The notes beneath the pieces are model-generated. The model searched no databases, had not been told where the DNA came from, and saw nothing but the letters and a program-made list of their open reading frames with translations. Positions 1 through 17,600 of a stretch of DNA of 18,411 nt are shown piece by piece (within the stretch, counting starts at the first letter, position 1; each line of letters opens with the position of its first letter). The translations under genes were made by a program, and so were the position numbers. Location: assembly GCA_036012755.1 (NCBI GenBank), contig DASCPX010000133.1:1-18411 (forward strand), written 5' to 3'. This stretch comes from Myxococcota bacterium (GTDB taxonomy: Bacteria; Myxococcota_A; UBA796; CAJQPC01).

Positions 1-101
1 GTGTTGTCAGCGTTGTCGGCGTTCTCGTCCTTGTCGCCACAGGCGATCAGGGCGAAGGCTGCAGTCGCGGTAGCGGCAACAGCGAGGAGCTTCATGTTCA
101 T
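1..101 (-). CDS. Small lipoprotein-signal peptide, paralog of 217..429; 3' part runs off the window
   Basis: My translation: MNMKLLAVAATATAAFALIACGDKDENADNADN(T)..., 32/33 identical to the start of 217..429. GAGGTG RBS at 106-111. Alternative ATGs at 104 and 95. Not in the ORF track because it has no stop in the window. Confidence 0.85.
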   Translation of the reverse strand, partial: MNMKLLAVAATATAAFALIACGDKDENADNADN

Positions 102-165
102 CATTCACCTCAGTGTTTCTCGGGGGCCGCTTCGGCGACCGCCGACCTTCTATCGCGTGAGATCC

Positions 166-198
166 AAAAAGAAAACCCCCGACCGAGGTCGAGGGCTC
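166..198 (-). terminator. Rho-independent terminator after the 217..429 gene
   Basis: Minus strand CCCTCGAC-ctcg-GTCGGGGG stem (one G-U pair) followed by TTTTCTTTTT, about 20 nt after the TGA. Confidence 0.8.
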
Positions 199-216
199 CT
201 TGGATTCCGTGAGGAA

Positions 217-429
217 TCAGCCGCCACAGGCGTTGCATGCGTTGCAGGCGTTGCATGCGTTGCAGGCGTTGCATGCGTTGCAGGCGTTGCAGGCGTTGCA
301 TGCGTTGCATGCGTTGCAGGCGTTGTCAGCGTTGTCAGCGTTGTCGGCGTTCTCGTCCTTGTCGCCACAGGCGATCAGGGCGAAAGCTGCGGTAGCAGTG
401 GCGGCCACTGCAAGAAGCTTGGTGTTCAT
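217..429 (-). CDS. 70-aa Cys-rich repeat lipoprotein or possible RiPP precursor: signal peptide-LIAC-GDKDE-(NAD)3-(NAC)11-GG
   Basis: Basic N-terminus, hydrophobic Ala-rich stretch and lipobox LIA|C. GAGGAG RBS at 439-444. Terminator downstream. Variation among the NAC repeat units falls at synonymous positions in this frame. Adjacent paralog. Confidence 0.85.
   Translation of the reverse strand: MNTKLLAVAATATAAFALIACGDKDENADNADNADNACNACNACNACNACNACNACNACNACNACNACGG
226..351 (-). repeat. 9-bp tandem repeat, 14 units (AAC GCN GAC x3, AAC GCN TGY x11)
   Basis: Read directly: units aacgcctgc / aacgcatgc / aacgctgac and close variants. Confidence 0.95.
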
Positions 430-494
430 TTTTTGAGTCTCCTCTCAGGTTCTTGCGGATGTCCAAATTGGGGAACCCAATCAGACCCACGCGA

Positions 495-522
495 ATGTTA
501 CAGGTGCTTGGTGACTTGTCAA
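495..522 (-). promoter_or_regulatory. Putative sigma70-type promoter for the NAC peptide gene
   Basis: Minus strand TTGACA (522-517), 16-nt spacer, TAACAT (500-495), about 65 nt upstream of ATG 429. Confidence 0.55.
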
Positions 523-1952
523 GAGAGCCCCCGCTGAGTGCGCTCGCGCGGGTTTTCGGGCCCAACACGCCACCATGGAAGGCCGTGGTGGGTGTCGTGG
601 TCGCACAAGTGGTCCTCGCGGGGTTGATGGTGGTCGACTGGCGAGCACCGGTCGCCGTCGTTCTCGGCGTCGGGCTCGTAGTCCTCGCGCTCCGCAGACC
701 GCTGGTCGCCGTGGGTCTTCTCATCGCTGGTCGGCTGCTGTCGACAGGCTCGATGTCGTTCATCCGGATCGGCAAGGTCAACATCGGGTTGTTCGAGCCC
801 GTGTTGTTCCTCGCCCTGGCTGCGCTGGCGATCCACGCGATCACCCGCAAGCAACCACTCCTGCAGAAGTGGCCGTGGCGCGGCCCTTTGCTGGTCCTGG
901 CCGGCTGGCAGGTGTTGGGCCTGCTCTGGTGCCACTCGCTGGGCGGAGGAATCCAGGAGCTGATCGCCGTCGGGGTCATCTTCGCGACGGCGACCGTGTT
1001 GCTCACCTACGTGCGGACCTACGAGGACTTTCGGGTCGTCGTCAGCGCCTGGCTCGGCGCAGCGGTGCTCATCGGACTGCTCGCCCTGACGACCGACTGG
1101 ACCGGGGTCGGCGAGGTGAAGGACACCTGGGAGGTCGCCGCCGGCGGGGGGCGCGAGACGGGACTCGGGCAGCAACCCAACTGGTTTGCCATGAACCTGA
1201 TGTTCATCGTGCTCACCGCCTTCGGAATGGCCGCGGTCGAAGAGCGCCGCTGGCTGCGCTGGCTCTTCGTCGCGGCTGGCTTCTTCGTGTTCGTGTCCCA
1301 GCTGCGCTCCGGCTCGCGCGGCGGCATCTACGCCCTCGCGATCGGCTCCGGCCTGGTCGGGCTGGCCCATCCCATCGCGCGGAAGTGGGTCGCCCGCTTC
1401 GGCGTCCTGGCCGGCCTGGTGTTCCTCGGCTTCTGGCTCTTCGGCGAAGGTGGAAGCACGACCAAGGCCGTCAACCGCATCCTCATGAACCTCGGCAACA
1501 CCTGGGGCGAGGACGTGCGCGAGCAGAACTGGGTCGTCTGCATGGAGATGTTCGCCGAGACCTGGGGTCGCGGGATCGGGCCAGGGGGCTACCCGGAGCT
1601 GGTCGCCGACTACAACTGGCGCATCTACGACTCCATCCACAAGTACCCCCACGGCATCTTCTGGGGAGTCATGGCCCACTACGGCGTCGTGGGCCTTGGC
1701 CTCGCAGGGTGGCTCGTCGTGCTCGTGTTCCGCATGAGTCGTGATCTCGTGCGCTGGACTCGCGGCACCGCCGTCGAGGTCTTCGCGTGGACCATGCCAG
1801 CTACGATGCTGGGATACGCGCTGTGGTCCTTCGTCGAGTTCAACTTCGACGACAAGCCGTTCTGGGAGTTCCTAGCCCTGTTCACCGCTCTCTACCTCTT
1901 CGTCCGCCGCCGTCGCGAATCGGACGGGAAGCTCCCGGAGCTGCCCGCATGA
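495..1952 (+). CDS. O-antigen ligase / Wzy_C-family polytopic membrane protein (start uncertain, could be as far downstream as GTG 585)
   Basis: Many TM segments. Family-like motifs 'GLGQQPNWFA', 'SGSRGG', 'R...W...(W)GRGIGPGGY' and 'YPHGIFWGVMAHYGVVGL'. Confidence 0.75.
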   Translation: MLQVLGDLSREPPLSALARVFGPNTPPWKAVVGVVVAQVVLAGLMVVDWRAPVAVVLGVGLVVLALRRPLVAVGLLIAGRLLSTGSMSFIRIGKVNIGLFEPVLFLALAALAIHAITRKQPLLQKWPWRGPLLVLAGWQVLGLLWCHSLGGGIQELIAVGVIFATATVLLTYVRTYEDFRVVVSAWLGAAVLIGLLALTTDWTGVGEVKDTWEVAAGGGRETGLGQQPNWFAMNLMFIVLTAFGMAAVEERRWLRWLFVAAGFFVFVSQLRSGSRGGIYALAIGSGLVGLAHPIARKWVARFGVLAGLVFLGFWLFGEGGSTTKAVNRILMNLGNTWGEDVREQNWVVCMEMFAETWGRGIGPGGYPELVADYNWRIYDSIHKYPHGIFWGVMAHYGVVGLGLAGWLVVLVFRMSRDLVRWTRGTAVEVFAWTMPATMLGYALWSFVEFNFDDKPFWEFLALFTALYLFVRRRRESDGKLPELPA

Positions 1953-2956
1953 CCCTCGAGGTGGTGCTCTGGATCGCCGTCGTCGTACTCGCCCTGTGGG
2001 CTGGGTGGCTCACGCTCCCGCGCAGTATGGCGCTGGACTGGGAACGCCTCTTCAAGCTCGCACTCGTGACGGGCATTCGAGGGCCGATAGAGGCCCGCGA
2101 TGGCGGAGTCGACGAGTGGCTCCGTGCCGGCCGGGAGCGCGTCTGGTACCACCCGGCGGCCCGCAGCCTGGTGGCGAAGCTGCGTGACCCGGCTGCCTTC
2201 GTGGTGCCCGTGCCGACGCTCAGTGGCGAGAGGGCCCTGATGGAGAAGCTCAGCTCTCTCGAGGACCCGAGCGCCCGCCTGGTCGAGGTCTTCGAGCAGG
2301 GCGGCGATGAGCCGTTGTACGAGGATCCAGCTGGCTTCGGGCCGGACTGGGACCTGGCGAGGATCCTCGGCCCCGGCGCGGGCTGGGAGGAGGTCGCGAC
2401 CTGGTCCGACAGTGTCGTCGAGGTGCTCCGTCGTCGGGCCGAGCACCACAAGTGGGCCATCGTCGGTCACCCGATCCTCGCTCGCTCCCTCGCCCAGGTC
2501 CTAGGGGAGCGTGTCGTCGAGGTCGACGATCTCGAGGAGCTGTCTGGCCTCGTGCCCCGGATGTCGGATCGCGTCGTGATCGTGACCCTGGGCGCTACCG
2601 GGCTCTTCGAGCATCTCCACGAAGCGCCCGCTCTGCGGGACCAGGTCGCGGCGGTGGTGGGCATCGACCTGGAGAACGACCCCGCCTGGCTCGCCGAGCA
2701 CTTCGACAACGAGGCCTTCGACACAGAGGTCAACCGGGCGACGCCCTACTTCCACCTCGCCTTCGTGGAGCGTGACCCGGACCTCGATCGCCTCGAGGCC
2801 TCCCTGCTGCCGGTCCCGCAGGTCCCGGACACCATGCGCGTCGTGCTGGAGCCCATCGATCTCGGCGTGCTGCCGGGTCCGGTGGCGGACTGTCCCCCGG
2901 ATCTGCTCGCCCGCGCCTTGCTGATCGTGGTATCCGCCCGGCTCGCGCTGGCTTGA
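1949..2956 (+). CDS. Hypothetical protein with N-terminal membrane anchor
   Basis: ATGA overlap with the upstream stop at 1949-1952. Begins MTLEVVLWIAVVVLALWAGWLTLP (one TM). Fills the gap to the next gene. Confidence 0.75.
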   Translation: MTLEVVLWIAVVVLALWAGWLTLPRSMALDWERLFKLALVTGIRGPIEARDGGVDEWLRAGRERVWYHPAARSLVAKLRDPAAFVVPVPTLSGERALMEKLSSLEDPSARLVEVFEQGGDEPLYEDPAGFGPDWDLARILGPGAGWEEVATWSDSVVEVLRRRAEHHKWAIVGHPILARSLAQVLGERVVEVDDLEELSGLVPRMSDRVVIVTLGATGLFEHLHEAPALRDQVAAVVGIDLENDPAWLAEHFDNEAFDTEVNRATPYFHLAFVERDPDLDRLEASLLPVPQVPDTMRVVLEPIDLGVLPGPVADCPPDLLARALLIVVSARLALA

Positions 2957-2963
2957 GGGCGTC

Positions 2964-3755
2964 GTGCATCCCTTCCACCGGACCGAGCTGATCGTCGGAA
3001 AGAAGGGCTGGCTGCGCCTCCAGCGCGCAAGCGTCCTGGTGGTCGGGCTGGGCGGGGTCGGCTCCTACGCGGCAGAGGCCATCGCGCGCGGGGGCATAGG
3101 TCGTATCGGTCTCGTCGACTTCGACGATGTCTGCGTGACCAACCTGAACCGGCAGCTCCATGCTCTGAGGCGCACGGTCGGACTGCCGAAGGCCGAGCTC
3201 ATGGCGCAGCGGTGTCGGGCCATCGATCCCAAGCTCGAGATCGACGCGCGAGTCGCCTTCTTCGACGCGGAGACGAGCGACGAGATCCTCGCGCCGGGCT
3301 GGGACTACGTGGTCGACTGCATCGACAACGTGACCGCGAAGCTCCACCTGCTCGAGACCTGCGTGAGTCGGGGGATCCCGGTCGTCGCGGCGTTGGGCGC
3401 TGGGGGCAAGCTCGATCCGACTCGGGTCCGGGTCTCGGCCCTCGGAGAGACCCGCGTCGACCCCTTCGCCAGGATCCTTCGCAAGGAGCTCCGCCGGCGG
3501 GACGTGGAGCTGTCGAGGATCGCGGCAGTGTGGTCGGACGAGCCCCCGGTGGAGCTCGACAGGGACGTGGCGACCGCGTTTCGCTGCATCTGTCCACAGG
3601 GCGACAACGAGGTGCACAGCTGCGATGACCGCAACGTCGTCCAGGGCACCGTCAGCTTCATCCCCCCGCTCTTCGGGTTGGTCGCCGCGGGGGTCGTCGT
3701 CAACGACCTCCTCGGACGGTCTCTGCTCCAGCCGTGCAGTTCGGTCGCGAGCTGA
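2964..3755 (+). CDS. tcdA: ThiF/E1-like enzyme, tRNA threonylcarbamoyladenosine dehydratase-like
   Basis: GLGGVGS, DFDDVCVTNLNRQ, DCIDNVTAK, GAGGKLDPT, DPFARILRKELR, WSDE, GTVSFIPPLFG. Confidence 0.85.
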   Translation: MHPFHRTELIVGKKGWLRLQRASVLVVGLGGVGSYAAEAIARGGIGRIGLVDFDDVCVTNLNRQLHALRRTVGLPKAELMAQRCRAIDPKLEIDARVAFFDAETSDEILAPGWDYVVDCIDNVTAKLHLLETCVSRGIPVVAALGAGGKLDPTRVRVSALGETRVDPFARILRKELRRRDVELSRIAAVWSDEPPVELDRDVATAFRCICPQGDNEVHSCDDRNVVQGTVSFIPPLFGLVAAGVVVNDLLGRSLLQPCSSVAS

Positions 3756-4867
3756 GGGCGCTCTGGGGTCTCGACCCCGACGCGACCTATCTGAACCACG
3801 GGGCCTTCGGTGCGGCCCCGCTCGAGGTCCTGGCCGCACAGCGTGTCTGGCGAGACCGCATGGAGCGCCAGCCATTCCGGTACTTCGTCGACGAGCTCGC
3901 CGAGCTCACACGCGAGGCTGCCGGGCGCCTCGCCGCCTACTGCGGGGCATCCGGCGAGGACCTCGTCTTCGTGCCGAACGCGACCACCGCCATCAACTCG
4001 GTGCTTCGCAGCCTCGAGTTCGCCCCCGGCGATCGCATCGTCGTGCTCGAGCACGTCTACGTCGGGATCGGGCACAGCGTCGAGTACGTCTGCTCCCGCA
4101 CCGGCGCGGTCATGGACAAGGTGCCGCTGCCCTGCCCGCCGGAGTCCGACTTCCTCTCGCGGCTCGGTGAGCGTCTCGTCGGAGCGCGGCTGGCCATCCT
4201 CGACCACATCACCTCGGCGACGGGCCTGCTCCTGCCGATCGAGGAGATGGTGCGGCTCTGTCGGGAGCGTGGGGTGCCGGTGCTCGTCGATGGCGCCCAC
4301 GCCCCGGGTCAGGTTCCGCTGGAGCTCGCTGCGCTCGGGGCCACCTGGTACACCGGAAACGCGCACAAGTGGCTCTGCGCCCCGAAGGGCTGCGCCTTTC
4401 TCTGGGCGTCGCAACAAGGGCAGGTGGGGCTTCATCCGGCTGTGATCTCCAACGGCTACGGTCGTGGCTTCCACGCAGAGTTCGACTACACGGGCACCTC
4501 GGACACGACCGCTCACCTTTCCATCCACGCCTGCCTCGACTTCCGCGCTCGCCTCGGCGACGCGGCGATCCGAGAGCACAACACCGCGCTGGCCAAGGAG
4601 GGTCGCCGGTTGCTGCTCGATGCGCTGGAGACGCAGGGCGCGGGCGCGGAGGCCCATGTCGGCAGCCTCGCGACGATCCGCCTGCCCATGGGAGAGCCGA
4701 CCATGGCGGCGGCACAGCGGCTCTCCAGGCGGATCTGGGAGGGGGATCGGATCGAGGTCCCGATCTTCGCCCATGCCGGCCATCTCTGGCTTCGCATCTC
4801 CGCGCAGATCTACAACGAGCGCGACGAATACCTGAAATTGGCGCAGTTGCTCTCAAGGATGCGCTGA
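3734..4867 (+). CDS. Class V PLP-dependent enzyme (isopenicillin N epimerase / Egt2 / cysteine desulfhydrase-like C-S lyase)
   Basis: YLNHGAFGA, FVPNATTAIN, DHITSATG, VDGAHAPG, GNAHKWLCAPKG (PLP lysine), LRISAQIYN. Confidence 0.85.
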   Translation: MQFGRELRALWGLDPDATYLNHGAFGAAPLEVLAAQRVWRDRMERQPFRYFVDELAELTREAAGRLAAYCGASGEDLVFVPNATTAINSVLRSLEFAPGDRIVVLEHVYVGIGHSVEYVCSRTGAVMDKVPLPCPPESDFLSRLGERLVGARLAILDHITSATGLLLPIEEMVRLCRERGVPVLVDGAHAPGQVPLELAALGATWYTGNAHKWLCAPKGCAFLWASQQGQVGLHPAVISNGYGRGFHAEFDYTGTSDTTAHLSIHACLDFRARLGDAAIREHNTALAKEGRRLLLDALETQGAGAEAHVGSLATIRLPMGEPTMAAAQRLSRRIWEGDRIEVPIFAHAGHLWLRISAQIYNERDEYLKLAQLLSRMR

Positions 4868-7159: not shown

Positions 7160-8248
7160 TCAGCGCCCACTCGCCCACGCCATGAAGCCCTCGGGGTCAG
7201 CCTGGATCCGCCGAACGAGGGCCTCCGGTAGGCGCCCCGCTCGGAGACCCAGCTTGTCCTCGCTCACGCCGAGCGCTCCGGAGAGTGCAGCCAGCACCTC
7301 GCTCGTGGGCTGCCGAGCTCCCGACTCGATGCGTGACAGCACGCTCGCAGCGATGCCCGCACGGGTGGCCAGGGCGCGCTGGGAGAGGCCCCTCCGTTGT
7401 CGGCGGGCGCAGAGCCACTCGCCGAAGGGCTGTGGTGTGGGCCTGGGCCTCGTCGCTGGCGCGGCGACGTCCTCGTGAGGCCAGGCGATGCGAGCCCAAG
7501 CGCTGTGGTTGTGGATCGACTCGAGGTTCTCCACGCTCACCTCGAGCCAGGACATCCCCGGCAGCTCGCGCAGGGCGCCGACGACGTCGCGGACGAGGTC
7601 CTCGACGAAGCGAGGGTTCTCGTAGGCCCGCTCCGTCACGTGCTTCTCGTCCTCGCGCTTGAGCAACGCGTAGAGCGGTGAGCTCGCATGGGCCTCGACG
7701 ACCTCGACGATGTCCTCGATCCAGATCATGCCCTCGAAGCGCACCTGTACGTCCACCAACCCGCGCTGGTTGTGGGCACCGTGGCGGCTCACGGCCTTGG
7801 AGCAGGGGCAGAGCGTCGTGACGGGTACGGTCACCCCGAGCACGAAGTCGAGTTCGTCTCGGCGCCGGCTGGCGGCGAAGCGGCAGGGGTACTCCATCAG
7901 CGAGCGGGCCCCGCTCACCGGCGCGCGGCGCTCCAGGAAGTAGGGGAAGCTCACGTCGAGGTAGGCGTCGTCGGCCTGCAGCCTGCGCTGCACCTCGGCG
8001 AGGATGTCCGGCACAGTGCCGAGCGACAGCTCCCCCCGGTGGCTCTCGAGCACCTCGAGGAAGCGGCTCATGTGTGTGCCCTTGAACTCTGCAGGCAGAC
8101 CGACGGAGAGCTGGATCTCCGCGACGGTGTGTTGGCGCTGCCTGGCCTTGTCCCAGACCGTGATCGGGTAGCTCAGGCGGTCGATGCCCACCTGGTCGAT
8201 GGGCAGCTGCCGGTGATCGGACTCGCTCGCGATGTCGGGCATACTCAT
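7160..8248 (-). CDS. folE2: GTP cyclohydrolase IB (FolE2) fused to a C-terminal XRE-family HTH domain
   Basis: IDQVGI, KGTHMSRF, VPVTTLCPCSK, GAHNQR, LLKREDEK, AYENPRFVED, ESIHNHSA. Then a Pro-rich linker and FGEWL..RR...GLSQRALA...GI....LSRIESG.R.P. Start ATG 8248 or 8242. Confidence 0.9.
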   Translation of the reverse strand: MSMPDIASESDHRQLPIDQVGIDRLSYPITVWDKARQRQHTVAEIQLSVGLPAEFKGTHMSRFLEVLESHRGELSLGTVPDILAEVQRRLQADDAYLDVSFPYFLERRAPVSGARSLMEYPCRFAASRRRDELDFVLGVTVPVTTLCPCSKAVSRHGAHNQRGLVDVQVRFEGMIWIEDIVEVVEAHASSPLYALLKREDEKHVTERAYENPRFVEDLVRDVVGALRELPGMSWLEVSVENLESIHNHSAWARIAWPHEDVAAPATRPRPTPQPFGEWLCARRQRRGLSQRALATRAGIAASVLSRIESGARQPTSEVLAALSGALGVSEDKLGLRAGRLPEALVRRIQADPEGFMAWASGR

Positions 8249-8268
8249 ACCGGAAGCGCTAACTGGCG

Positions 8269-8286
8269 GTTGCCATGTCTGGCAAC
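8269..8286. promoter_or_regulatory. Inverted repeat GTTGCCA-N4-TGGCAAC, candidate operator
   Basis: Perfect 7-bp arms in the divergent folE2/oleA intergenic region, 20 bp from the folE2 start. Confidence 0.5.
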
Positions 8287-8371
8287 ATCGGTGTGACCTG
8301 ATTTCAGTTGGTATTGAAGTCAATGAAGTTCTGGGGTAGGTAGGAAGCCCCAGAGCAGTTAGACGGTGACA

Positions 8372-9376
8372 ATGCGCTTTGAGAAGGTCTGCATCGAGGC
8401 CCTCAGCTACGAGCTCCCCCCGCAGGTCCTGACCACGGCGGCGCTGGAGTCCGCGCTGGGTCCGCTGTACTCCCGGTTGGGGGTCCAGCCGGGCTGGCTG
8501 GAGGCGGTGACGGGCATCAGGGAGCGCCGCATGTGGGCTCCAGGTGACGACGCGGTCGCGGCGGCGAGCAGGGCATGCGACAAGGCTCTCGAAGAGGCCG
8601 GTGTGCCTCGCTCACAGGTCGACGTCCTGGTGAGCTGCTCGGTCTACAAGGCCCAGCTCGAGCCCAGCGTGGCCTGCAGGGTCCACCACGACCTCGGCCT
8701 GCGCCCGGGCGCGATGAACTTCGACGTCGGCAACGCCTGCCTCGGACTCCTCTCGGGGATGCAGGTCGTGGGCAACATGATCGAGCTCGGGCAGGCGAGG
8801 GCCGGGCTGGTCGTCGCCGGAGAGTGCAGCCGCGAGGTCACCGGCAACACGATCGCGAAGCTGCTCGAGCCCGACGCGGACATACAGCGCTACCGCGAGA
8901 ACCTCGCCACCCTGACCCTCGGGAGCGCCGCCGCCGCCGTGCTCCTCGTCGACCGCTCCCTGTCCGTGAGCGGCCATCGCTTCACGGGCGGCGTCACCCT
9001 CAGCGCCAGCCAGCACGCTGGCCTGTGCTACGGCGACAACCGGGGCATGACCACCGACCCGACGCGCTTGCTGGCCGAGGGCGTGCGCCTCGCGCGACAG
9101 ACCTGGGACAGCTTTCGGCGGGAGCAGGGGGACTCCAGTGCCTTCGCGCTGCACCAGGTCGGAAAGGCCAACCACGACACGGTCTGCCGGGCGCTGGGCA
9201 TCGACGATCGGCGGGCTCTCCGCATCTACCCGGAGATCGGGAACGTCGGCGCCGCCAGCGTCGCCATCGCCGCGGGCATGTCGGTCGAACAAGGCGCCGT
9301 GCGGCCCGGCGAAGGGCTCACCCTCATGGGCATCGGCAGCGGGCTGAACGTCTCGATGCTGCGGGTCGATTGGTGA
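8372..9376 (+). CDS. oleA: OleA, thiolase-fold acyl-CoA head-to-head condensing enzyme
   Basis: MRFEKVCIEALSYELP start, LEPSVA (catalytic Glu), FDVGNACLG (Cys), LTLGS, HQVG, GNVG, LMGIGSGLN. First gene of an oleABCD order. Confidence 0.9.
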   Translation: MRFEKVCIEALSYELPPQVLTTAALESALGPLYSRLGVQPGWLEAVTGIRERRMWAPGDDAVAAASRACDKALEEAGVPRSQVDVLVSCSVYKAQLEPSVACRVHHDLGLRPGAMNFDVGNACLGLLSGMQVVGNMIELGQARAGLVVAGECSREVTGNTIAKLLEPDADIQRYRENLATLTLGSAAAAVLLVDRSLSVSGHRFTGGVTLSASQHAGLCYGDNRGMTTDPTRLLAEGVRLARQTWDSFRREQGDSSAFALHQVGKANHDTVCRALGIDDRRALRIYPEIGNVGAASVAIAAGMSVEQGAVRPGEGLTLMGIGSGLNVSMLRVDW

Positions 9377-10230
9377 TCCCGGGGGAACTCTACCCGTGGA
9401 CCGGTGACTTCCACGACGTGGACGGCGGTCGCATGCACGTGGTCGACGAGGGCCCGAAGGACGCGCCGGTGCTGCTGGCGGTCCATGGAAACCCGACGTG
9501 GTCCTTCTACTGGCGAGCGCTCATCGAGCACTTCGCCGGGCGCTACCGGGTCGTGGCGGTCGACCACATCGGCTGCGGGCTCTCGGACAAGCCCCAGGAC
9601 TGGCCATACCGACTCGAGGGGCACGTCGAGAACCTCGTGAAGGTCGTCGAGGAACTCGATCTGAGCGACATCACCCTGGTCGTGCACGACTGGGGTGGCG
9701 CCATCGGCATGGGCGCCGCCGAGCGCATGCCCCAGCGCTTCGGGCGGATCGTCGTCACCAACTCCGCCGCCTTTCGCAGCCAGGCGATCCCGCCGAGCAT
9801 CGCCTGCTGCCGCATCCCGGGCTTCGGGGCGGTTGCGGTCCGCGGCTTCAACGGCTTCGCTTGGGCCGCGACCTGGCGCACGACCGTGCGGCCCCTGTCC
9901 AAGGAGGTCAAGGCTGGCCTCACCCACCCATACGACAGCTGGGACAACCGCATCGCCACCCTTCGCTTCGTCGAGGACATCCCGATGAAGCCCTCGCACC
10001 CGAGCTACCAGACCCTCGTCGACATCGAAGACGGCCTCGCCGCGCTCGCGGACAAGCCGATGCTGGTCCTCTGGGGAGAGCAGGACTGGTGCTTCACCCC
10101 CGAGTTCCGCCGCCAGTGGGAGGCGCGCTTCCCCCGGGCAGAGGTCCACGCCTGGCAAGACGTCGGCCACTACGTCATGGAGGACGCCCCCGAGCGGGTC
10201 TGCGAGGCCATCGAGGCCTGGACCGCGTGA
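9373..10230 (+). CDS. oleB: OleB, beta-lactone decarboxylase (haloalkane-dehalogenase-like alpha/beta hydrolase)
   Basis: GTGA overlap with oleA stop. HGNPTWSFYWR, DHIGCGLSDKP, VHDWGG, FVEDIP, GHYVMED. Confidence 0.9.
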   Translation: MIPGELYPWTGDFHDVDGGRMHVVDEGPKDAPVLLAVHGNPTWSFYWRALIEHFAGRYRVVAVDHIGCGLSDKPQDWPYRLEGHVENLVKVVEELDLSDITLVVHDWGGAIGMGAAERMPQRFGRIVVTNSAAFRSQAIPPSIACCRIPGFGAVAVRGFNGFAWAATWRTTVRPLSKEVKAGLTHPYDSWDNRIATLRFVEDIPMKPSHPSYQTLVDIEDGLAALADKPMLVLWGEQDWCFTPEFRRQWEARFPRAEVHAWQDVGHYVMEDAPERVCEAIEAWTA

Positions 10231-11825
10231 ACTTCGCGGCCCGCCTGGACCGGCTCGCGGCAGAGCGTCCCCGGCAGCGTGCCCTCGTGCGGCCAGCTGG
10301 GCGGGACCCTCGCGATGGTCGGAGGCTCTGGGCGCAGCTCACTTTTTCGCAGCTGCACGAGATGACCAACAGCACGGCGCGCGGCTTCGCGAGCGCCGGG
10401 ATCGGGCAGGGCGATCGCGTCATCCTGCTCGTGGAGCCGAGCTTCGAGTTCTTCAGCATCATCTTCGCCCTCTGGAAGCTGGGCGCGGTGCCTGTCCTCA
10501 TCGATCCGGGCATGGGGCTCTCCGGCTTCCTGGCATGCGTGCGCCAGATCCGGCCGAGGGTGTGCATCGGCGTACCGCGCGCGATGCTCCTGTCCAAGCT
10601 CAAGGCCACGGACTTCGAGAGCGTCGAGCTGCGCGTCACCGTCGGGCCCAGCACCTGGTTCTGGGGTGGCGAGACCCTGCCGCTGTTGATGGACCCCGGG
10701 CCACTGCAGACCCTGGATGTGCCGGGTGATGCCGTCGCGGGAGTGCTCTTCACCAGCGGCTCCACCGGTCCGGCGAAGGGCGTCCGATACAGCCACGGCA
10801 TGTTCGAGGCCCAGGCTACGCGCATCGCGGCGCTCTATGGCATCGAAGCGGGCCAGGTCGACGTGCCCTGCTTCCTCCCCTTCGCGATGTTCAGCTGCGT
10901 GATGGGCATGACCGTCGTGCTGCCGGACATGGACTTCAGCAAGCCCGCGACGGCCAGGCCAGAGGCCCTCGCAGAGGCCATCATCGAGCACGGCGCCCAT
11001 CAGCTGGTGGGCTCTCCCGCGGTCATGAGGCGGCTCGCTCGGTGGGCTCCGGACAAGGGCGTGCGCTTTCCCAGCCTCGAGCGCGTGCTCACCTTTGGCG
11101 CGCCGATCCCCCGCGACCTGCACGAGACCTTCCGCGAGCTGCTCGCTGAGGGCGTGGACATCCACACCCCCTACGGCGCCACCGAGGCGCTGCCCGTGGC
11201 GAGCACCTCGACGACCGCGATCCTGGCCGAGCTGGGCGCCCGCACGGCGAGCGGGGAGGGGACCTGTGTCGGCGGCGTCGCTCCGGACACGAACGTAAGG
11301 GTCATCCGCATCACCGACGAGCCGATCCCGACCTGGTCCGAGGAGCTCGTGCTCCCCCCTGGAGAGGTCGGCGAGATCTGCGTGAAGGGGCCCCAGGTCT
11401 CCTCCGAGTACGTCGGGCGGCCAGAGGCCACCAGCGCCGCGAAGATCCAGGACGGCGAGGGCTTCTGGCACCGCATGGGGGACCTCGGCTTTGTCGACGC
11501 ACAGGGCCGTCTCTGGTTCTGCGGGCGCAAGGCACACCGGGTCAGGTGCAGCGACGGCGAGCTGGTCTTCCCCGTTCCACTGGAGGGTGTCTTCAACGAG
11601 GTCGACGGCGTCCTTCGCAGCGCGGTGGTGGAGGTGAGCGGGGCTCCGGTCCTGGTCGTCGAGGGCAAGGCCGACGAGGGGGAGCTCCTGCGGGTGGCCA
11701 AGGCCAACCCGGTGACTCGCCGCGTCGAGCGCGTCCTGTTCCACCCGGGCTTCCCGGTCGACCGGAGGCACAACGCCAAGATCCACCGGCTCCAGCTCCG
11801 GGACTGGGCCAGAGACCGCACGTGA
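10227..11825 (+). CDS. oleC: OleC, AMP-forming beta-lactone synthetase
   Basis: GTGA overlap. LIDPGMG, FTSGSTGPAKG, TPYGATEALP, WHRMGDLG, WFCGRKAHRV, FPVDRRHNAKI. Confidence 0.9.
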   Translation: MNFAARLDRLAAERPRQRALVRPAGRDPRDGRRLWAQLTFSQLHEMTNSTARGFASAGIGQGDRVILLVEPSFEFFSIIFALWKLGAVPVLIDPGMGLSGFLACVRQIRPRVCIGVPRAMLLSKLKATDFESVELRVTVGPSTWFWGGETLPLLMDPGPLQTLDVPGDAVAGVLFTSGSTGPAKGVRYSHGMFEAQATRIAALYGIEAGQVDVPCFLPFAMFSCVMGMTVVLPDMDFSKPATARPEALAEAIIEHGAHQLVGSPAVMRRLARWAPDKGVRFPSLERVLTFGAPIPRDLHETFRELLAEGVDIHTPYGATEALPVASTSTTAILAELGARTASGEGTCVGGVAPDTNVRVIRITDEPIPTWSEELVLPPGEVGEICVKGPQVSSEYVGRPEATSAAKIQDGEGFWHRMGDLGFVDAQGRLWFCGRKAHRVRCSDGELVFPVPLEGVFNEVDGVLRSAVVEVSGAPVLVVEGKADEGELLRVAKANPVTRRVERVLFHPGFPVDRRHNAKIHRLQLRDWARDRT

Positions 11826-12826
11826 AGGCCCTCGTCACCGGCGGCGGTGGCTTCCTCGGCAGCGCCATCGTGCGCCTGCTGCGAGCGCGCGACGACGAGG
11901 TGGTCGTCCTCGGCCGCAACCACTACCCACACGTCGAGGAGCTCGGCGCCACCTGCGTGATCTGCGACATCGCAGAGGGCGGGGCGGCCCTCGATACGGC
12001 CCTCGTCGGTGTGGACGTCGTCTTCCACGTCGCGGCCCTCGCCGGCATGTGGGGCCCCTATGAGCGCTACCGGCGCGTCAACGTGCAAGGCACGCAGACC
12101 GTGCTCGAGGCGGCCAGGCGAGCCGGGGTCCGGCGCTTCGTCCACACCTCCAGCCCCAGCGTGACCTTCGACGGTCGGAGCGAGGAGGGGGTGCGCGAAG
12201 AGGACTGCAGCTACCCCGAGACCTTCCTCTTCCACTACCCGGCGACCAAGGCAGAGGCAGAGGCCTGGGTGCTCGCCCAGGACTCCGACGTGTTGGCCAC
12301 AACCGCCCTGCGCCCTCATCTCATCTACGGCCCCGGGGATCCCCACCTCGTGCCGCGGCTCCTCGCCAGGCAGCGAGCAGGACGGCTCAGGGTCCTCGGA
12401 TCGGGGACCAACAAGGTCGCCCTGACCTACGTCGACAACGCCGCCGTCGCCCACCTGCAGGCAGCCGACGCGCTCGCCGTCGGCTCCCCGAACGCCGGTC
12501 GGGCCTACTTCATCACCGACGGTGACCCGGTGGTGGTGTGGGAGTGGCTCGACGAGCTCTTCGAGGCCGTCGGCGCGGGCCGGATCCGGGGGCGGGTCCC
12601 CACCGGGGTCGCCATGCCCCTCGCGGGACTCGTCGAGTGGGTCTGGCGGACCTTCGGCGTGGCCTCCGAGCCCCCGATCACGCGCTTCACGGTGGCCCAG
12701 ACCAGCACATCCCACTGGTACGACCTGCACAACGCGCGAGCGGACTTCTCCTACACCCCCATCGTGGACCCCGAGACCGCTTTTTCCCGCACGGTTGCGG
12801 CCTTTTTGGGGCCTCCCGCCCGCTGA
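11822..12826 (+). CDS. oleD: OleD, 2-alkyl-3-oxoalkanoate reductase (3-beta-HSD-like extended SDR)
   Basis: GTGA overlap. VTGGGGFLG, HTSSPSV, YPATKAEAE (YxxxK), LRPHLIYGPGD, YVDNAA.AH. Confidence 0.9.
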   Translation: MKALVTGGGGFLGSAIVRLLRARDDEVVVLGRNHYPHVEELGATCVICDIAEGGAALDTALVGVDVVFHVAALAGMWGPYERYRRVNVQGTQTVLEAARRAGVRRFVHTSSPSVTFDGRSEEGVREEDCSYPETFLFHYPATKAEAEAWVLAQDSDVLATTALRPHLIYGPGDPHLVPRLLARQRAGRLRVLGSGTNKVALTYVDNAAVAHLQAADALAVGSPNAGRAYFITDGDPVVVWEWLDELFEAVGAGRIRGRVPTGVAMPLAGLVEWVWRTFGVASEPPITRFTVAQTSTSHWYDLHNARADFSYTPIVDPETAFSRTVAAFLGPPAR

Positions 12827-12922
12827 CCCACGGGTCAAAAAACAAACCCACAGGTTTTTTTGGATGCCAAGGGCGTGCAATCCGGATGATCTGCGGAATT
12901 GTGTCCAACTCGTCAACGCAAC

Positions 12923-12938
12923 CCCCTGAATTCAGGGG
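12923..12938. promoter_or_regulatory. Perfect 16-bp palindrome CCCCTGAATTCAGGGG upstream of pfaD
   Basis: Read directly, 45 bp upstream of the TTG start. Confidence 0.45.
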
Positions 12939-12983
12939 TAGAAGGCCCGGTCACCGGAGTCATGACCCGGTGCGGGAGATCGC

Positions 12984-14600
12984 TTGATCGAGAATCACCT
13001 CGTCGGAGCCTGGACGCAGGGTCCGACGCCCCCCAACTTCGATGGTCCTGACGTCCTCGCGGCCGTCCAGCGCATCCGTGAACCGGTCCACATCGTGCAG
13101 GAGCCCGAGGGCCGGGTCGGTGTCGCCTTCCAGGGCGGCGTCATCTCGACCGAGATGGTCAACGGGAGACCCTCCTTCCCGCTCCTGGCCACGCTCCCCC
13201 CCCTGTACCCGGAGTGGCTCGGCGACCGCAGCTTCTGCGAGGTCCACGGGACGCGCTACCCCTACCTCCAGGGCGCGATGGCCAACGGCATCGCCACGAC
13301 CCGCATGGTCATCGCCATGTGCCAGGCGGGCTTCCTCGGCTTCTTCGGCGCCGGGGGGCTCGGGCTCTCGCGCATCGAGGCCGCTGTCGACGAGCTCATC
13401 TCGTCGGTGGGCGACAGGCCGAACTGGGGCTGCAACCTGATCCACGCCCCCCAGGAGCCGGACCTGGAGCAGGCCACGGTCGAGCTCTACCTGGCACGCG
13501 GCGTGCGCCGGATCTCGGCTGCGGCCTTCATGAAGCTCACGCCGATGGTGGTGCAGTACTCCGCCAGTGGGCTCCGGGAGCTGCCTGACGGGCGCGTGGT
13601 CAGGAAGAACCACGTCTTCGCGAAGATCAGCCGCCCAGAGGTCGCCGCCCACTTCATCAACCCCGCCCCGGACGAGATGCTCGATGCCCTCGTCGCTTGC
13701 GGGCGCCTGAGCCCGGAGGAGGGTCGCCTGGCCCGCCGGGTCGCCGTCGCCGAGGACATCATCGTCGAGTCCGACAGCGGCGGTCACACGGACAACCGGC
13801 CCCTCGGCGCGCTCTTCCCCGTCATCGTCACCTTGCGGGACGAGCTCGTGCGCCGGCACGGCTACAGCCGGCCCATCCGGGTCGGCGCTGCTGGAGGCAT
13901 CGGCACCCCCGCCGCCGCCGCTGCTGCCTTTTCGCTCGGCGCGGCCTTCGTGCTCACCGGCTCCGTGAACCAGGGCGCGGTCGAGTCGGGGCTCTCCGAG
14001 GAGGGCCGGGTGATGCTCGCCAGCGCCGGCCTCGCCGACGTGACCATGGCACCCGCCGCCGACATGTTCGAGCTCGGGGTCGAGGTCCAGGTCCTTGGCC
14101 GCGGCACGATGTTCGCGATGCGCGCCAAGCGCCTCTACGAGACCTACGAGCGCTACGCCGGCCTCGAGGACATCCCCGCAGATGTCCGCGCCAGGCTCGA
14201 GAAGCAGGTCCTCGGCCTCTCACTCGAGACCGTCTGGTCCAACACCCAGTCCTTCTGGACCGAGCGCGACCCGCGTGAGCTGGAGCGCGCCGAGGCCGAC
14301 CCCAAGCACAAGATGGCCCTCTGCTTCCGCTGGTATCTCGGGCTGTCCAGCCGCTGGGCCATCACCGGCGATGCGTCGCGTCGCCTCGACTACCAGATCT
14401 GGTGCGGCCCCGCGATGGGCGCCTTCAACAGCTGGGTCCGCGGGAGCGTCCTCGAGCCCGTCGAGAACCGCCGCGTCGTCCAGATCGCCCTGAATCTCGT
14501 GGAGGGCGCCGCGCACATCACGCGCGCGCAGCAGCTCCGCACCTACGGCGTGGCCGTCCCCGCCGCTGCCTTCGACTTCCGTCCCCGGAACCTGTCATGA
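12984..14600 (+). CDS. pfaD: PfaD/Pfa1, FMN-dependent enoyl reductase of PUFA synthase
   Basis: GAMANGI, NLIHAP, AKISRPEVA, ESDSGGHTDNRP, GAAGGIGTP, MAPAADMFELG, DYQIWCGPAMGAFN. GGGAG before TTG. Confidence 0.92.
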   Translation: MIENHLVGAWTQGPTPPNFDGPDVLAAVQRIREPVHIVQEPEGRVGVAFQGGVISTEMVNGRPSFPLLATLPPLYPEWLGDRSFCEVHGTRYPYLQGAMANGIATTRMVIAMCQAGFLGFFGAGGLGLSRIEAAVDELISSVGDRPNWGCNLIHAPQEPDLEQATVELYLARGVRRISAAAFMKLTPMVVQYSASGLRELPDGRVVRKNHVFAKISRPEVAAHFINPAPDEMLDALVACGRLSPEEGRLARRVAVAEDIIVESDSGGHTDNRPLGALFPVIVTLRDELVRRHGYSRPIRVGAAGGIGTPAAAAAAFSLGAAFVLTGSVNQGAVESGLSEEGRVMLASAGLADVTMAPAADMFELGVEVQVLGRGTMFAMRAKRLYETYERYAGLEDIPADVRARLEKQVLGLSLETVWSNTQSFWTERDPRELERAEADPKHKMALCFRWYLGLSSRWAITGDASRRLDYQIWCGPAMGAFNSWVRGSVLEPVENRRVVQIALNLVEGAAHITRAQQLRTYGVAVPAAAFDFRPRNLS

Positions 14601-17600
14601 CCACTCGCTCACCCATCGCCGTCGTCGGCGTCTCCGCCATCTTCCCAGGCTCCGTCGACGCCACCGGCTTCTGGAAGGACATCCTCGCGGGCACCGACCT
14701 GATCCGCGACGTGCCGCGCAGCCACTGGCTCATCGACGACTACTACGACCCGGATCCGGCCGCCCCCGACAAGACCTACGCCAAGCGCGGTGCCTTCCTC
14801 GAGGACATCCCCTTCGACCCGCTCGAGTGGGGCGTCCCGCCCAGCATCGTGCCGGCCACCGACACCTCCCAGCTCCTCGCGCTCATCACGGCGAAGCGGG
14901 TGCTCGAGGACGCGGCGGGTGGCCAGTTCGCCGAGATGGACAAGAGCAGGATCAGCGTCATCCTCGGCGTCACCAGCGCCCAGGAGCTGCTGGGATCCAT
15001 GAACAGCCGCCTCCAGAAGCCGGTCTGGCGCAAGGTCCTGCGCGACGCTGGCCTGCCCGAGAGCAAGGTCGTCGAGCTGCTCGGCCGCATCGAGGGCGAG
15101 TACACCCCCTGGCAGGAGGCCAGCTTCCCGGGGCTCCTCGGCAACGTCGTCGCCGGACGCATCGCCAACCGCCTCGACCTCGGCGGAACCAACTGTGTCT
15201 GCGACGCTGCCTGTGCCTCGGCCTTCAGCGCGGTGTCGATGGCTGCAAACGAGCTCTGGCTCGGACAGTCCGATGTCGTCATCACCGGCGGCGTCGACAC
15301 CATGAACGACATCTTCATGTTCATGTGCTTCAGCAAGACGCCAGCCCTGTCCCCCTCCGGGGACGTGAAGCCCTTCTCCGACGAGGCCGACGGCACCATG
15401 CTCGGCGAGGGGATGGGGATGGTCGCCTTGAAGCGTCTCGAGGACGCCGAGCGTGACGGTGACCGCATCTACGCCGTGATCACGGGTGTCGGCTCCAGCA
15501 GCGACGGGCGCGCCAAGAGCGTCTACGCCCCCCGTCCCAGCGGGCAGGCCTCTGCGCTGGAGCGCGCCTACGACGCCGCCGGCTACGGCGCCGACACGGT
15601 GGAGCTGGTCGAGGCCCACGGGACCGGCACGAAGGCCGGCGACGCCGCCGAGTTCGAGGGGCTCACCATGGCCTTCGACCACAGCGGCCGACAGGACCGC
15701 CGCTGGTGTGCGCTGGGAAGCGTGAAGTCCCAGATCGGCCACACCAAGGCCGCCGCGGGCAGCGCTGGCCTCTTCAAGTCGGTCATGGCGCTGCACCACA
15801 AGGTCATCCCCCCGACCATCAAGATCGACCGTCCGAACCCCAATATGGACCTCCAGGGCTCGCCCTTCTACCTGTCCACGCGTGCCCGTCCCTGGGTCCG
15901 CGGCCCAGAGCACCCCAGGCGTGCCGGCGTGTCGAGCTTCGGCTTCGGCGGGAGCAACTTCCACCTCGCCCTCCAGGAGTACACCGGGGACCACAAGGCC
16001 AGCTTCCGTCGCTGGGGCGGGCCCGAGATCGTCGTCTTCGGAGCGGACTCCTCGGAGGCTCTGCTCGCGCAGCTGCGCAGCCTCGATCTCTCAGGCGATG
16101 GCTGGCTCGAGTGGCTCGCTCGTGACTCGCAGCAGAGCTACTCCGGTGGCCAGGCCCGCCTCGCCATCGTGGCATCCGACGTCGAGGACTTCCGCACCAA
16201 GCTCGAGCTCGCGCTGAGCCACCTGCAGGACAAGCCCGGCAAGCCGCTGGCCTCTCCCAAGGGCATCCACTACGGCTTCGGCGAGGCTGGCAAGACCGCC
16301 TTCGTCTTCCCCGGTCAGGGCAGCCAGTACGTCGACATGGGAGCCCAGGTCGCGATGACCTGGCCCGAGGCAGTGGGTGCCTGGGACGCCGCAGAGGGCG
16401 CCGTCGCCGGACTCGCGGACATCGTCTTCCCCCGCCCGGACTTCTCCGCCACCGCTGAGGACTGGCAGACCAGGCTGACCGCCACCGAGTGGGCCCAGCC
16501 CGCCATCGGCGCCTGCTCGCTCTCGCTCTTGAGGGTGCTCTCTCGCCTGGGTGTCAGCGCCGACTGCGTCGGTGGACACAGCTATGGAGAGGTCACCGCG
16601 CTCCACGCAGCGGGCGTGCTCAGCGCAGAGGACATGCTCCGGGTCGCCCGCCGTCGAGGCGAGCTCATGGCCCAGGCGGCGAAGACCCCGGGCTCGATGA
16701 CCGCCGTCGTCGCGGACATCGAGAGTGTTCGGCCAGTGGTCGAAGACAGCGGCCTCGACGTCGTGGTCGCGAACCACAACAGCCCGCGGCAGGTCGTGCT
16801 CAGCGGCCCGACCAAGGCCATCGATGGAATCGAGCAGGCCCTCGACGCTGCGGGGCTTCCCTTCCGGCGCCTCGGTGTCGCCACCGCTTTCCACTCCAGC
16901 GTCGTCTCCGACAGCGTCGGCCCCTTCGCCGAGGCCCTCGCAGAGGTCGACTTCGCCACGCCGACGCTGCCGGTCTACGCCAACAGCGAGGCGGCTCCGT
17001 ACCCCAGCGAGCCAGCGGCGATCCGCGAGCTGCTCGCTGGCCAGATCGCCCGGAGCGTGCGCTTCGTCGACCAGGTCGAGGCCATGTACGCCGCCGGCGT
17101 GCGCGTCTTCGTCGAGGTCGGCCCACACGCGGTGCTGACGGGTCTCGTCGCGCGCATCCTGAAGGGGCGTCCGCACGCGGCCGTGCCCCTGGACAAGAAG
17201 GGCAAGGACGGCCTGGTTCAGCTGCAGGACGGCCTCGGCCGCCTCGTCGCCGCTGGCGTCGAAGTGCAGCTCTCGAAGCTCTGGGAGGGCTGGGCCGAGG
17301 CCGTCGACCCCCGCAGCCTCCCGGCTCCCAAGATGCTCATGCACATCAACGGGGCCAACTACGGCAAGCCCTATCCGCCGCCAGAGGGCCAGATGCCTGG
17401 TCCCAACCCGGAACTCGAGCCCGAGGTCATCGTGAAGGAAGTCATCAAGGAGGTCCGCGTCGAGGTCCCTGTGGAGGTTCCGGTGCAGGCTCCGGTGCAG
17501 GCTCCCGGGCGCGCCGCAGCCCGTCCGGCAGCGGACGGTTGGGTCCAGGCCTTCCAGGAGAGCCAGCGTCAGACCGTCGAGGCCCACTCGGCCTTCCAGG

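Follow-up and report, generated by a model that had tools for sequence, protein, structure and literature searches.

The question raised by this locus is what use a bacterium can make of a tiny exported lipoprotein that carries the tripeptide Asn-Ala-Cys (NAC) eleven times in a row. The DNA that was analysed (the window) is 18,411 nt long and is an entire contig (C133). In the first-pass annotation, the peptide was taken to be either metallothionein-like or modified by an enzyme after translation. The features around the gene are as follows, read from the sequence unless another basis is given.

495 to 522, minus strand: sigma-70-type promoter-like TTGACA-16-TAACAT (motif search)
439 to 446, minus strand: ribosome-binding-site-like GAGAGGAG
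217 to 429, minus strand: coding sequence of the 70-aa NAC lipopeptide, copy A (a DNA pattern finds orthologues in 12 of 22 genomes of the family)
367 to 429, minus strand: predicted lipoprotein-type signal peptide, residues 1-20, and lipid-accepting Cys21 (367-369)
325 to 366, minus strand: acidic linker GDKDE(NAD)3
226 to 324, minus strand: (Asn-Ala-Cys)11 array, the proposed substrate sites
172 to 199, minus strand: intrinsic-terminator-like hairpin and T-run 3' of copy A
1 to 101, minus strand: 5' part of tandem copy B, which continues at the start of contig C23
453 to 1952, plus strand: O-antigen-ligase-like membrane protein, divergent, start uncertain (weak Wzy_C and PEP_O_lig_1 matches below cut-off)
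1949 to 2956, plus strand: F1, a divergent 335-aa membrane-anchored protein (conserved neighbour)

Copy A begins with a 20-residue signal that ends in LIA-C21 and is followed by GDKDE, (NAD)3, (NAC)11, and GG. This layout and the mature length of 50 aa had been described at first pass and were confirmed; no strand had been given, and the gene lies on the minus strand. The mature peptide contains 11 repeat cysteines in addition to the lipid-accepting one, and neither Ser nor Thr. Nine of the 11 repeat cysteines are in CX3N, the exceptions being the last two, as had been described. The signal has the charged N-region, hydrophobic core, and lipobox cysteine of bacterial lipoproteins (SPII), and Cys21 is invariant in 24 of 24 aligned homologues. 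From its sequence, copy A is predicted to be exported and lipidated. The gene had also been credited with its own ribosome-binding site, promoter, and terminator, and sites resembling all three are present (446-439, 522-495, and 199-172, respectively). AGGAG is found 9 nt 5' of the ATG. One promoter-like site was found at copy A against 0.1 expected in shuffles, and TTGACA occurs within 200 nt upstream in 10 of the 14 orthologous loci checked.

By chance, (NAC)11 would be expected about 5e-42 times per genome. A DNA microsatellite was considered as the origin of the array and was ruled out by the freely varying Ala codon. Over 200 repeat units from 21 loci, Ala was encoded by GCC (91), GCT (71), GCA (30), and GCG (8). 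Ala and Cys are constant across these units while the Ala codon drifts; the units were chosen by the [ND]-A-C pattern, and the counts show synonymous turnover, not the absence of other residues. Selection thus acts on the peptide. Contigs from RNA libraries (three runs, two studies) include pieces of the gene of 206 nt (266-471) and 179 nt with 0 differences. A third piece, of 150 nt, has four differences. These contigs, which gave no coverage of the gene flanks or of the cytochrome gene described below, are consistent with transcription of copy A, short of proof. Since the runs were picked using the peptide gene and contigs cannot rank genes, the expression level cannot be inferred from them. 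DNA matches to the locus came from marine or seawater metagenomes.

The locus continues on contig C23. This contig opens with the remainder of a NAC peptide, followed by a pentahaem cytochrome (C23:187-1497) and a PMT_2-like, glycosyltransferase-like GT-C protein (C23:1517-3130). The cytochrome has 436 aa, an N-terminal hydrophobic segment (membrane anchor), and five CxxCH motifs. A metagenome contig, L344, is colinear with positions 3-4678 of the window and 1-1499 of C23 and has two peptide copies immediately before the cytochrome, which confirms the gene order across the two contigs. The mix of NAD and NAC with which C23 opens may reflect misassembly, since a contig from a DNA run reads NAC there. 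The first-pass annotation had seen no modifying enzyme in the window, and family scans found none. It had pointed to the left of position 1 as the place to look for further paralogs and for MNIO, radical SAM/SPASM, or YcaO genes. A second copy of the peptide is indeed there, but in place of MNIO, SPASM, or YcaO genes it is the pentahaem cytochrome that follows.

The conserved layout has F1 and the O-antigen-ligase-like gene on one side and, divergently, the peptide, the pentahaem cytochrome, sometimes a methyltransferase, and GT-C. The SAM methyltransferase is missing from the locus in the source genome (G000). F1 gave no Pfam, NCBIfam, or usable Atlas match. It is present at the locus across the order, Cys-less loci included, and the O-antigen-ligase-like gene is likewise a conserved neighbour that also stands beside Cys-less orthologues, so neither is tied to the cysteines. 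GT-C, the O-antigen-ligase-like gene, F1, and the SAM methyltransferase were all rejected as partners because each also adjoins Cys-less peptides.

Pfam and NCBIfam scans with the peptide (E 0.1) gave no match, in agreement with the first-pass view that the NAC repeat belongs to no named family. A protein search returned 7 relatives only. The (NAC)3 DNA pattern occurs in 12 of 22 family genomes and 0 times in the control. Family peptides are found in one to three tandem copies with 2-11 repeat cysteines; some repeats are DAC, and NGC and TAC variants also occur. Across the order, the orthologous peptides have 0, 1, 2, and up to 11 Cys, and no His. The tiny lipoprotein is itself found order-wide, often with no cysteine beyond the lipobox. 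NAD/NAE is the Cys-less form of the repeat and composes whole Cys-less orthologues. The homologues therefore bear out a real, conserved family of lipopeptides, predicted to be exported, but not a fixed number of cysteines (0-11).

A GTDB-wide scan for (NAC)3 DNA gave 115 stretches. Inspection by eye found a signal-plus-NAC gene, a fusion, or a cut end at 23 loci among them, and the remaining stretches were rejected as out-of-frame or antisense repeats. The looser pattern [ND]AC x2 had matches in 103 of 154 order genomes; seven such loci in family f3 were read and rejected as Asp-rich repeats, which we take to be thrombospondin-type-3-like. Very small acidic lipoproteins without annotation are found upstream of GT-C order-wide (L243, L244, L246-L256, and L258-L306). 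At NAC-less loci these have 10-50 mature residues of D/S/T/E/A. In addition, three larger lipoproteins that are unrelated (in G012, G002, and G004) have NAC tracts or scattered NAC motifs fused into them.

L038:417-980, minus strand: NAC fusion lipoprotein
L045:6914-7237, plus strand: NAC fusion lipoprotein
L424:2357-2878, minus strand: NAC fusion lipoprotein

The distribution of the cytochrome follows that of the NAC motif. The order was surveyed from the GT-C gene (99 of 154 order genomes), and the DNA upstream was read for the peptide and the cytochrome. The counts exclude 26 of the 57 fetched GT-C loci, which had no recognisable peptide, as well as G115 (intact cytochrome, no peptide found) and GT-C matches that were not fetched; G104, among the excluded loci, has a relic cytochrome on a short contig. 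A cytochrome orthologue was present in 30 of 30 genomes with at least one NAC in the peptide, the 'intact' cytochrome of G012, G017, G107, and G116 resting on split or cut contigs and that of G120 having one altered haem-1 motif. An intact cytochrome was present in 0 of 37 genomes with a NAC-less orthologous peptide, G085 (one non-NAC Cys, no clear ATG) being scored as NAC-negative. Among these 37, the cytochrome was missing at the locus in 32 and was a relic with 2-4 haem motifs in 5. Where it was missing, at most paralogue-level matches were found, in four genomes (E ~1e-22 to 1e-25). None of the five relics retains haem 2, the MG.G loop, or the tyrosine of GH..P[TS]Y. Four genomes with a single NAC (G090, G106, G110, and G111) have the cytochrome.

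On a quick GT-C tree of 66 surveyed genomes, with both states tabulated by hand and G136 absent for want of a GT-C match, the state changed 11 times or more, and of the independent pairs that well-supported branches provide, 7 of 7 agree (p 0.016 by sign test). Simple co-deletion was considered as the cause and is contradicted by two sets of genomes. The signal peptide of G090, which has one NAC and the cytochrome, is almost identical to those of G092-G094, which have neither Cys nor cytochrome, and in G105, G107, and G108 the NACNAC peptide is on another contig while the cytochrome is kept with five haems. G290 (93% complete) and G115 (84%) have a five-haem cytochrome, and no repeat gene was found in them. 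Co-retention shows a shared function; it is not proof of direct contact or of a reaction. The cytochrome and the peptide are probably linked as enzyme and substrate. The relic cytochromes without haem 2 may keep a non-catalytic role. Relics at six loci (L263, L267, L268, L269, L271, and L264) retain an open frame, the Ig-like domain, and the membrane anchor.

An AlphaFold model of the cytochrome, built without haems, has a pLDDT of 87. It matches Thermochromatium tepidum c552 (5ZE8) with Z 20.6 and an rmsd of 3.6 over 298 residues, and the next structural match has Z 7.2. The cytochrome profile matches 5ZE8 at E 1e-16 and MccSep (PDB 9wt8) at E 3e-8. The likeness to MccSep rests on sequence, while that to 5ZE8 also rests on the fold of the model. 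Five c-haem motifs (CxxCH), a C-terminal Ig-like domain, and export are shared with this PHC family, and the predicted fold is 5ZE8-like. The 5ZE8 protein has a Cys at the position aligned with C239 of MccSep, and its haem 2 reportedly has His/Cys ligation. In MccSep, catalysis takes place at haem 2, which has His and C239 as ligands and, together with the Sec residue U325, breaks the S-S bonds of polysulfide (10.1101/2025.11.18.688581). The function of T. tepidum c552 has been suggested to concern sulfur (PMC11976967).

The cytochrome of the NAC locus differs from these proteins at the catalytic site. When C239 and U325 of the MccSep type were sought by alignment, Gln and a Thr-Tyr loop were found instead. 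Among 107 distinct pentahaems, selected by the Thr/Ser-Tyr loop at the Sec site, the position equivalent to C239 is Gln/Glu in 106, falls in a Leu/Glu register in 1, and is Cys in 0. Thus Gln/Glu replaces the haem-2 Cys ligand of MccSep and 5ZE8, and the Thr-Tyr loop replaces the catalytic Sec/Cys of MccSep. Unlike MccSep and 5ZE8, the cytochrome also has an N-terminal membrane anchor or lipobox, and it is tied to N-x-C repeat proteins whereas MccSep/PHC is tied to S0 respiration. It is a member of the pentahaem fold family but not a MccSep. The cytochrome appears to contribute no thiol to the catalytic haem and to retain haem 2 only together with a Cys-bearing partner. Haem 2 is probably the active site and probably open. 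A conserved Met, Gln/Glu, or Tyr could instead fill the haem-2 site, and a cytochrome without both MccSep catalytic residues may carry out entirely different chemistry. The source genome has a second, distant pentahaem paralogue (G000:C9:79698-80741, L435), which has no Tyr loop and no N-x-C repeat gene nearby.

The cytochrome is also associated with Asn-x-Cys repeats outside the order. The phylum sample comprised 401 genomes, 341 of them outside the order, and 17 of the latter have a close cytochrome homologue (E <= 7e-67). At least 10 matches to the N[PA]C-repeat pattern were found in 16 of these 17, and in 15 of the 16 a secreted NPC-repeat protein adjoins the cytochrome. Most of these adjacent proteins carry a SoxA/TsdA-type haem domain flanked by NPC arms. 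Neighbours at NPC loci include molybdopterin oxidoreductase, DoxX, AhpC/TSA, ECF sigma, and a zf-HC2 anti-sigma factor. This is a thiol-redox setting. Exported N-x-C repeats, haem-protein neighbours, and the same pentahaem family are common to NAC and NPC loci. The NAC locus differs in that the motif is on a pre-existing tiny lipoprotein with a sigma-70-like promoter and has no adjoining SoxA-like domain or ECF sigma. One lipopeptide (L348) mixes NGC, NPC, and NAC, and G031, of a family without the lipopeptide locus, is of the NPC type. In G031 (L325, G031:C365) the pentahaem lies between two different NPC-tailed monohaem cytochromes. An AIRS-domain gene, presumably similar to that of the selenophosphate synthetase SelD, and a zf-HC2 gene are near the pentahaem at L364, L375, and L393, and two of these three loci have a short NPC-tailed protein.

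The association is looser elsewhere. Among metagenome cytochrome loci, a NAC/NPC gene was seen in 18 of 80, and in 10 of 33 with at least 2 kb on both sides; 23 loci of one lineage have a common aminopeptidase-like neighbour and no NAC/NPC gene in the contigs at hand. Three genomes (G431, G364, and G234) have NPC repeats, yet a 7-haem Tyr-less homologue is their only match. Seven weaker matches in the phylum sample (E 1e-45 to 1e-61), G239 among them, were set aside, and six that were read are 6-8-haem proteins without the Tyr loop. L429-L434 form a related 6-8-haem subfamily that has no Tyr loop; NPC repeats are present elsewhere in three of these genomes. Among 317 outside-order genomes with no cytochrome match, those with 1-5 pattern matches being inspected in part, 3 had at least 6 repeat-pattern matches. 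All three were rejected: the matches listed for G394 and G456 are non-NPC DNA repeats, and the control count for G413 is equally high.

In the preferred reading, a tentative one at somewhat less than an even chance, the peptide is a rechargeable thiol arm that is serviced by the pentahaem cytochrome through disulfide/persulfide chemistry. The lipid-anchored peptide would present its Asn-Ala-Cys cysteines in the envelope as the substrate of a dedicated five-haem cytochrome. The membrane-anchored cytochrome would bind each NAC cysteine at the open haem 2, and electrons would pass along the haem chain to make or break disulfides or persulfides reversibly. This mechanism is drawn from the chemistry of MccSep and from the thiol-redox neighbours of the NPC loci. 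Direct contact between peptide and cytochrome and a reversible turnover of disulfide or persulfide would be expected. The reaction direction and the physiological trigger, conceivably the buffering of oxidants or of reactive sulfur, are likewise suggested by the proposal. SoxYZ with SoxAX/TsdA would offer a parallel, with Cys on a flexible arm that is serviced by a c-type haem enzyme, and NPC relatives have a SoxA/TsdA haem domain as Sox does. The NAC system differs in having many Cys per arm, and its pentahaem has a different fold from the Sox haem enzymes and no Cys ligand of its own. SoxY was searched for in G000 and none was found, so no sulfur-oxidation pathway backs a carrier role there.

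The main alternative, possible if rather unlikely, is that the peptide is a lipo-RiPP precursor. The pentahaem would then be a periplasmic maturase that irreversibly oxidises N-x-C cysteines and gives a membrane-bound metal chelator, an analogue of bufferins and DAG-RiPPs made without MNIO. In that event, which we consider doubtful, the cytochrome would be the first multihaem-cytochrome RiPP maturase, with the NAC/NPC cysteine as a trans ligand at haem 2 that is permanently converted and the haem chain as electron sink. The products, at a similarly low likelihood, would be a heterocycle, a cross-link, or an oxygenation. Periplasmic haem enzymes that modify proteins exist, MauG being one, and the co-retention of NAC and cytochrome fits this reading equally. 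The short motif with its near-fixed Asn resembles a modular tag, found as it is on unrelated lipoproteins in three genomes, and the motifs of DAG-RiPPs, too, are found both on small peptides and on large proteins (PMC13056109). The DoxX, ECF sigma, and zf-HC2 anti-sigma neighbours of NPC loci fit bufferin-like RiPP clusters equally, and bufferin clusters have DoxX, SigF, and NrsF (10.1101/2024.03.18.585515). Against this reading, the S-S chemistry of the only characterised relative, MccSep, is reversible, neither an RRE nor a partner protein is conserved, and the variants DAC, NGC, and TAC are tolerated. Modification of the peptide is purely hypothetical so far.

Modification by MNIO, YcaO, or radical SAM enzymes finds no support. 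DAG-RiPPs (DybA and NedA; PMC13056109) and bufferins/oxazolins share with the peptide a small precursor, a lipoprotein or Sec signal, and a repeated Cys motif, and their motif is also portable to larger proteins. The motif is N-[AP]-C in the NAC system as against CPxCGxG or EGKCG in MNIO RiPPs, and its co-evolving enzyme is a periplasm-facing haem protein with a putative modification. The MNIO core motifs (CPxCGxG, EGKCG, and DUF2282) are absent from the peptide, which gave no Pfam/NCBIfam match at E 0.1. DUF692/MNIO was found neither at the locus nor in G000 (96% complete), and in 0 of 5 tested NPC/pentahaem genomes. Within the family MNIO does not follow the peptide: 11 of 14 genomes with NAC have it, as do 4 of the 8 others, and 0 were seen in the fetched neighbourhoods. 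Among ranthipeptide/sactipeptide enzymes, 13 SPASM matches were found in G000, 0 of them on C133 or C23, and radical SAM/SPASM genes were not found among the conserved neighbours of the peptide loci, so that any such enzyme would have to be unlinked. YcaO had 0 matches in the 96%-complete G000. Of the first-pass proposal that an enzyme modifies the peptide, the link to an enzyme is supported, with the pentahaem in 30 of 30 NAC genomes, but the MNIO, YcaO, and radical SAM classes are not.

An unmodified peptide that acts as a metal-thiolate sponge (Cu, Zn, or Hg), with the cytochrome setting the redox state of the bound metal or keeping the thiols reduced, is improbable. Up to 11 Cys in CxxC register, one to three tandem copies, and the consensus promoter do suggest a bulk stoichiometric role. 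However, single-NAC orthologues still keep the cytochrome, and a defined cluster is at odds with Cys counts that run from 1 to 11, odd as well as even. The peptide has no His and no match to a metallothionein HMM, and no metal regulator or transporter is found in the conserved neighbourhood. Bacterial metallothioneins (SmtA/BmtA) are also small and Cys-rich. The NAC peptide differs in being exported and lipid-anchored (both predicted), free of His, linked to an enzyme, variable across orthologues (0-11 Cys), and without a family match. The first-pass comparison with metallothioneins is thus weakened. The functional unit is the single N-A-C rather than CxxC, and since a single NAC suffices, a metallothionein is unlikely.

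It is less probable still that the cytochrome, as a dedicated thiol oxidase, ties copies of an abundant envelope lipoprotein together through disulfides into a structural mesh. The order-wide presence of a tiny acidic Cys-less lipoprotein suggests a basic role in the envelope, and NPC repeats occur in the spore protein CdeC, which is self-assembling and disulfide-dependent (PMC7677010). A single NAC, however, permits a dimer only, and the NPC arms are on soluble secreted cytochromes that do not look structural. Lastly, it is very unlikely that N-A-C is an Asn-X-Cys glycosylation sequon, or a site of S-glycosylation, for the GT-C and O-antigen-ligase-like proteins; both glycosyltransferase-like genes are conserved neighbours and the mature peptide offers no Ser or Thr, but both genes are kept next to Cys-less peptides and also at loci in which no peptide was found, so neither tracks NAC, STT3/PglB was not found in G000 (a long query can miss weak matches), and Pro at X, as in the interchangeable NPC form, blocks N-sequons.

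No published description of an envelope peptide with a pentahaem sulfur-redox system was found, and the pairing appears to be new. The literature gave no account of secreted NAC/NPC repeats paired with a pentahaem, in a search that largely covered sources other than subscription papers and supplements. The pentahaem is a candidate enzyme for the widespread, unexplained secreted Asn-x-Cys repeat proteins. In turn, the NAC peptide is a candidate protein substrate for a pentahaem branch of which one well-studied family member reduces polysulfide. If either the thiol-arm or the RiPP reading is true, this would be new enzymology, in which a c-type haem enzyme borrows a Cys ligand from its substrate. 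If the cytochrome is a maturase, its products would form a new class, widespread and made up of modified lipopeptides and protein arms, with NAC at this locus and NPC in other genomes, and the role of MNIO-made bufferins would be filled without MNIO. The minimal pair consists of a peptide of 50 residues with a single soluble haem domain as its partner, and one-NAC peptides, zero-NAC peptides, and haem-2-less relics are natural controls.

The remainder of the window contains other genes. The gene at 7160-8323 (minus strand) encodes a GTP cyclohydrolase FolE2 that bears an HTH_3/XRE domain as a C-terminal fusion, and related genes of similar length are found in several relatives. From 8366 to 18411 (plus strand), OleABCD-like genes for olefin biosynthesis precede PfaD and a PUFA synthase of the PfaA type, and together these make up a polyunsaturated hydrocarbon cluster.
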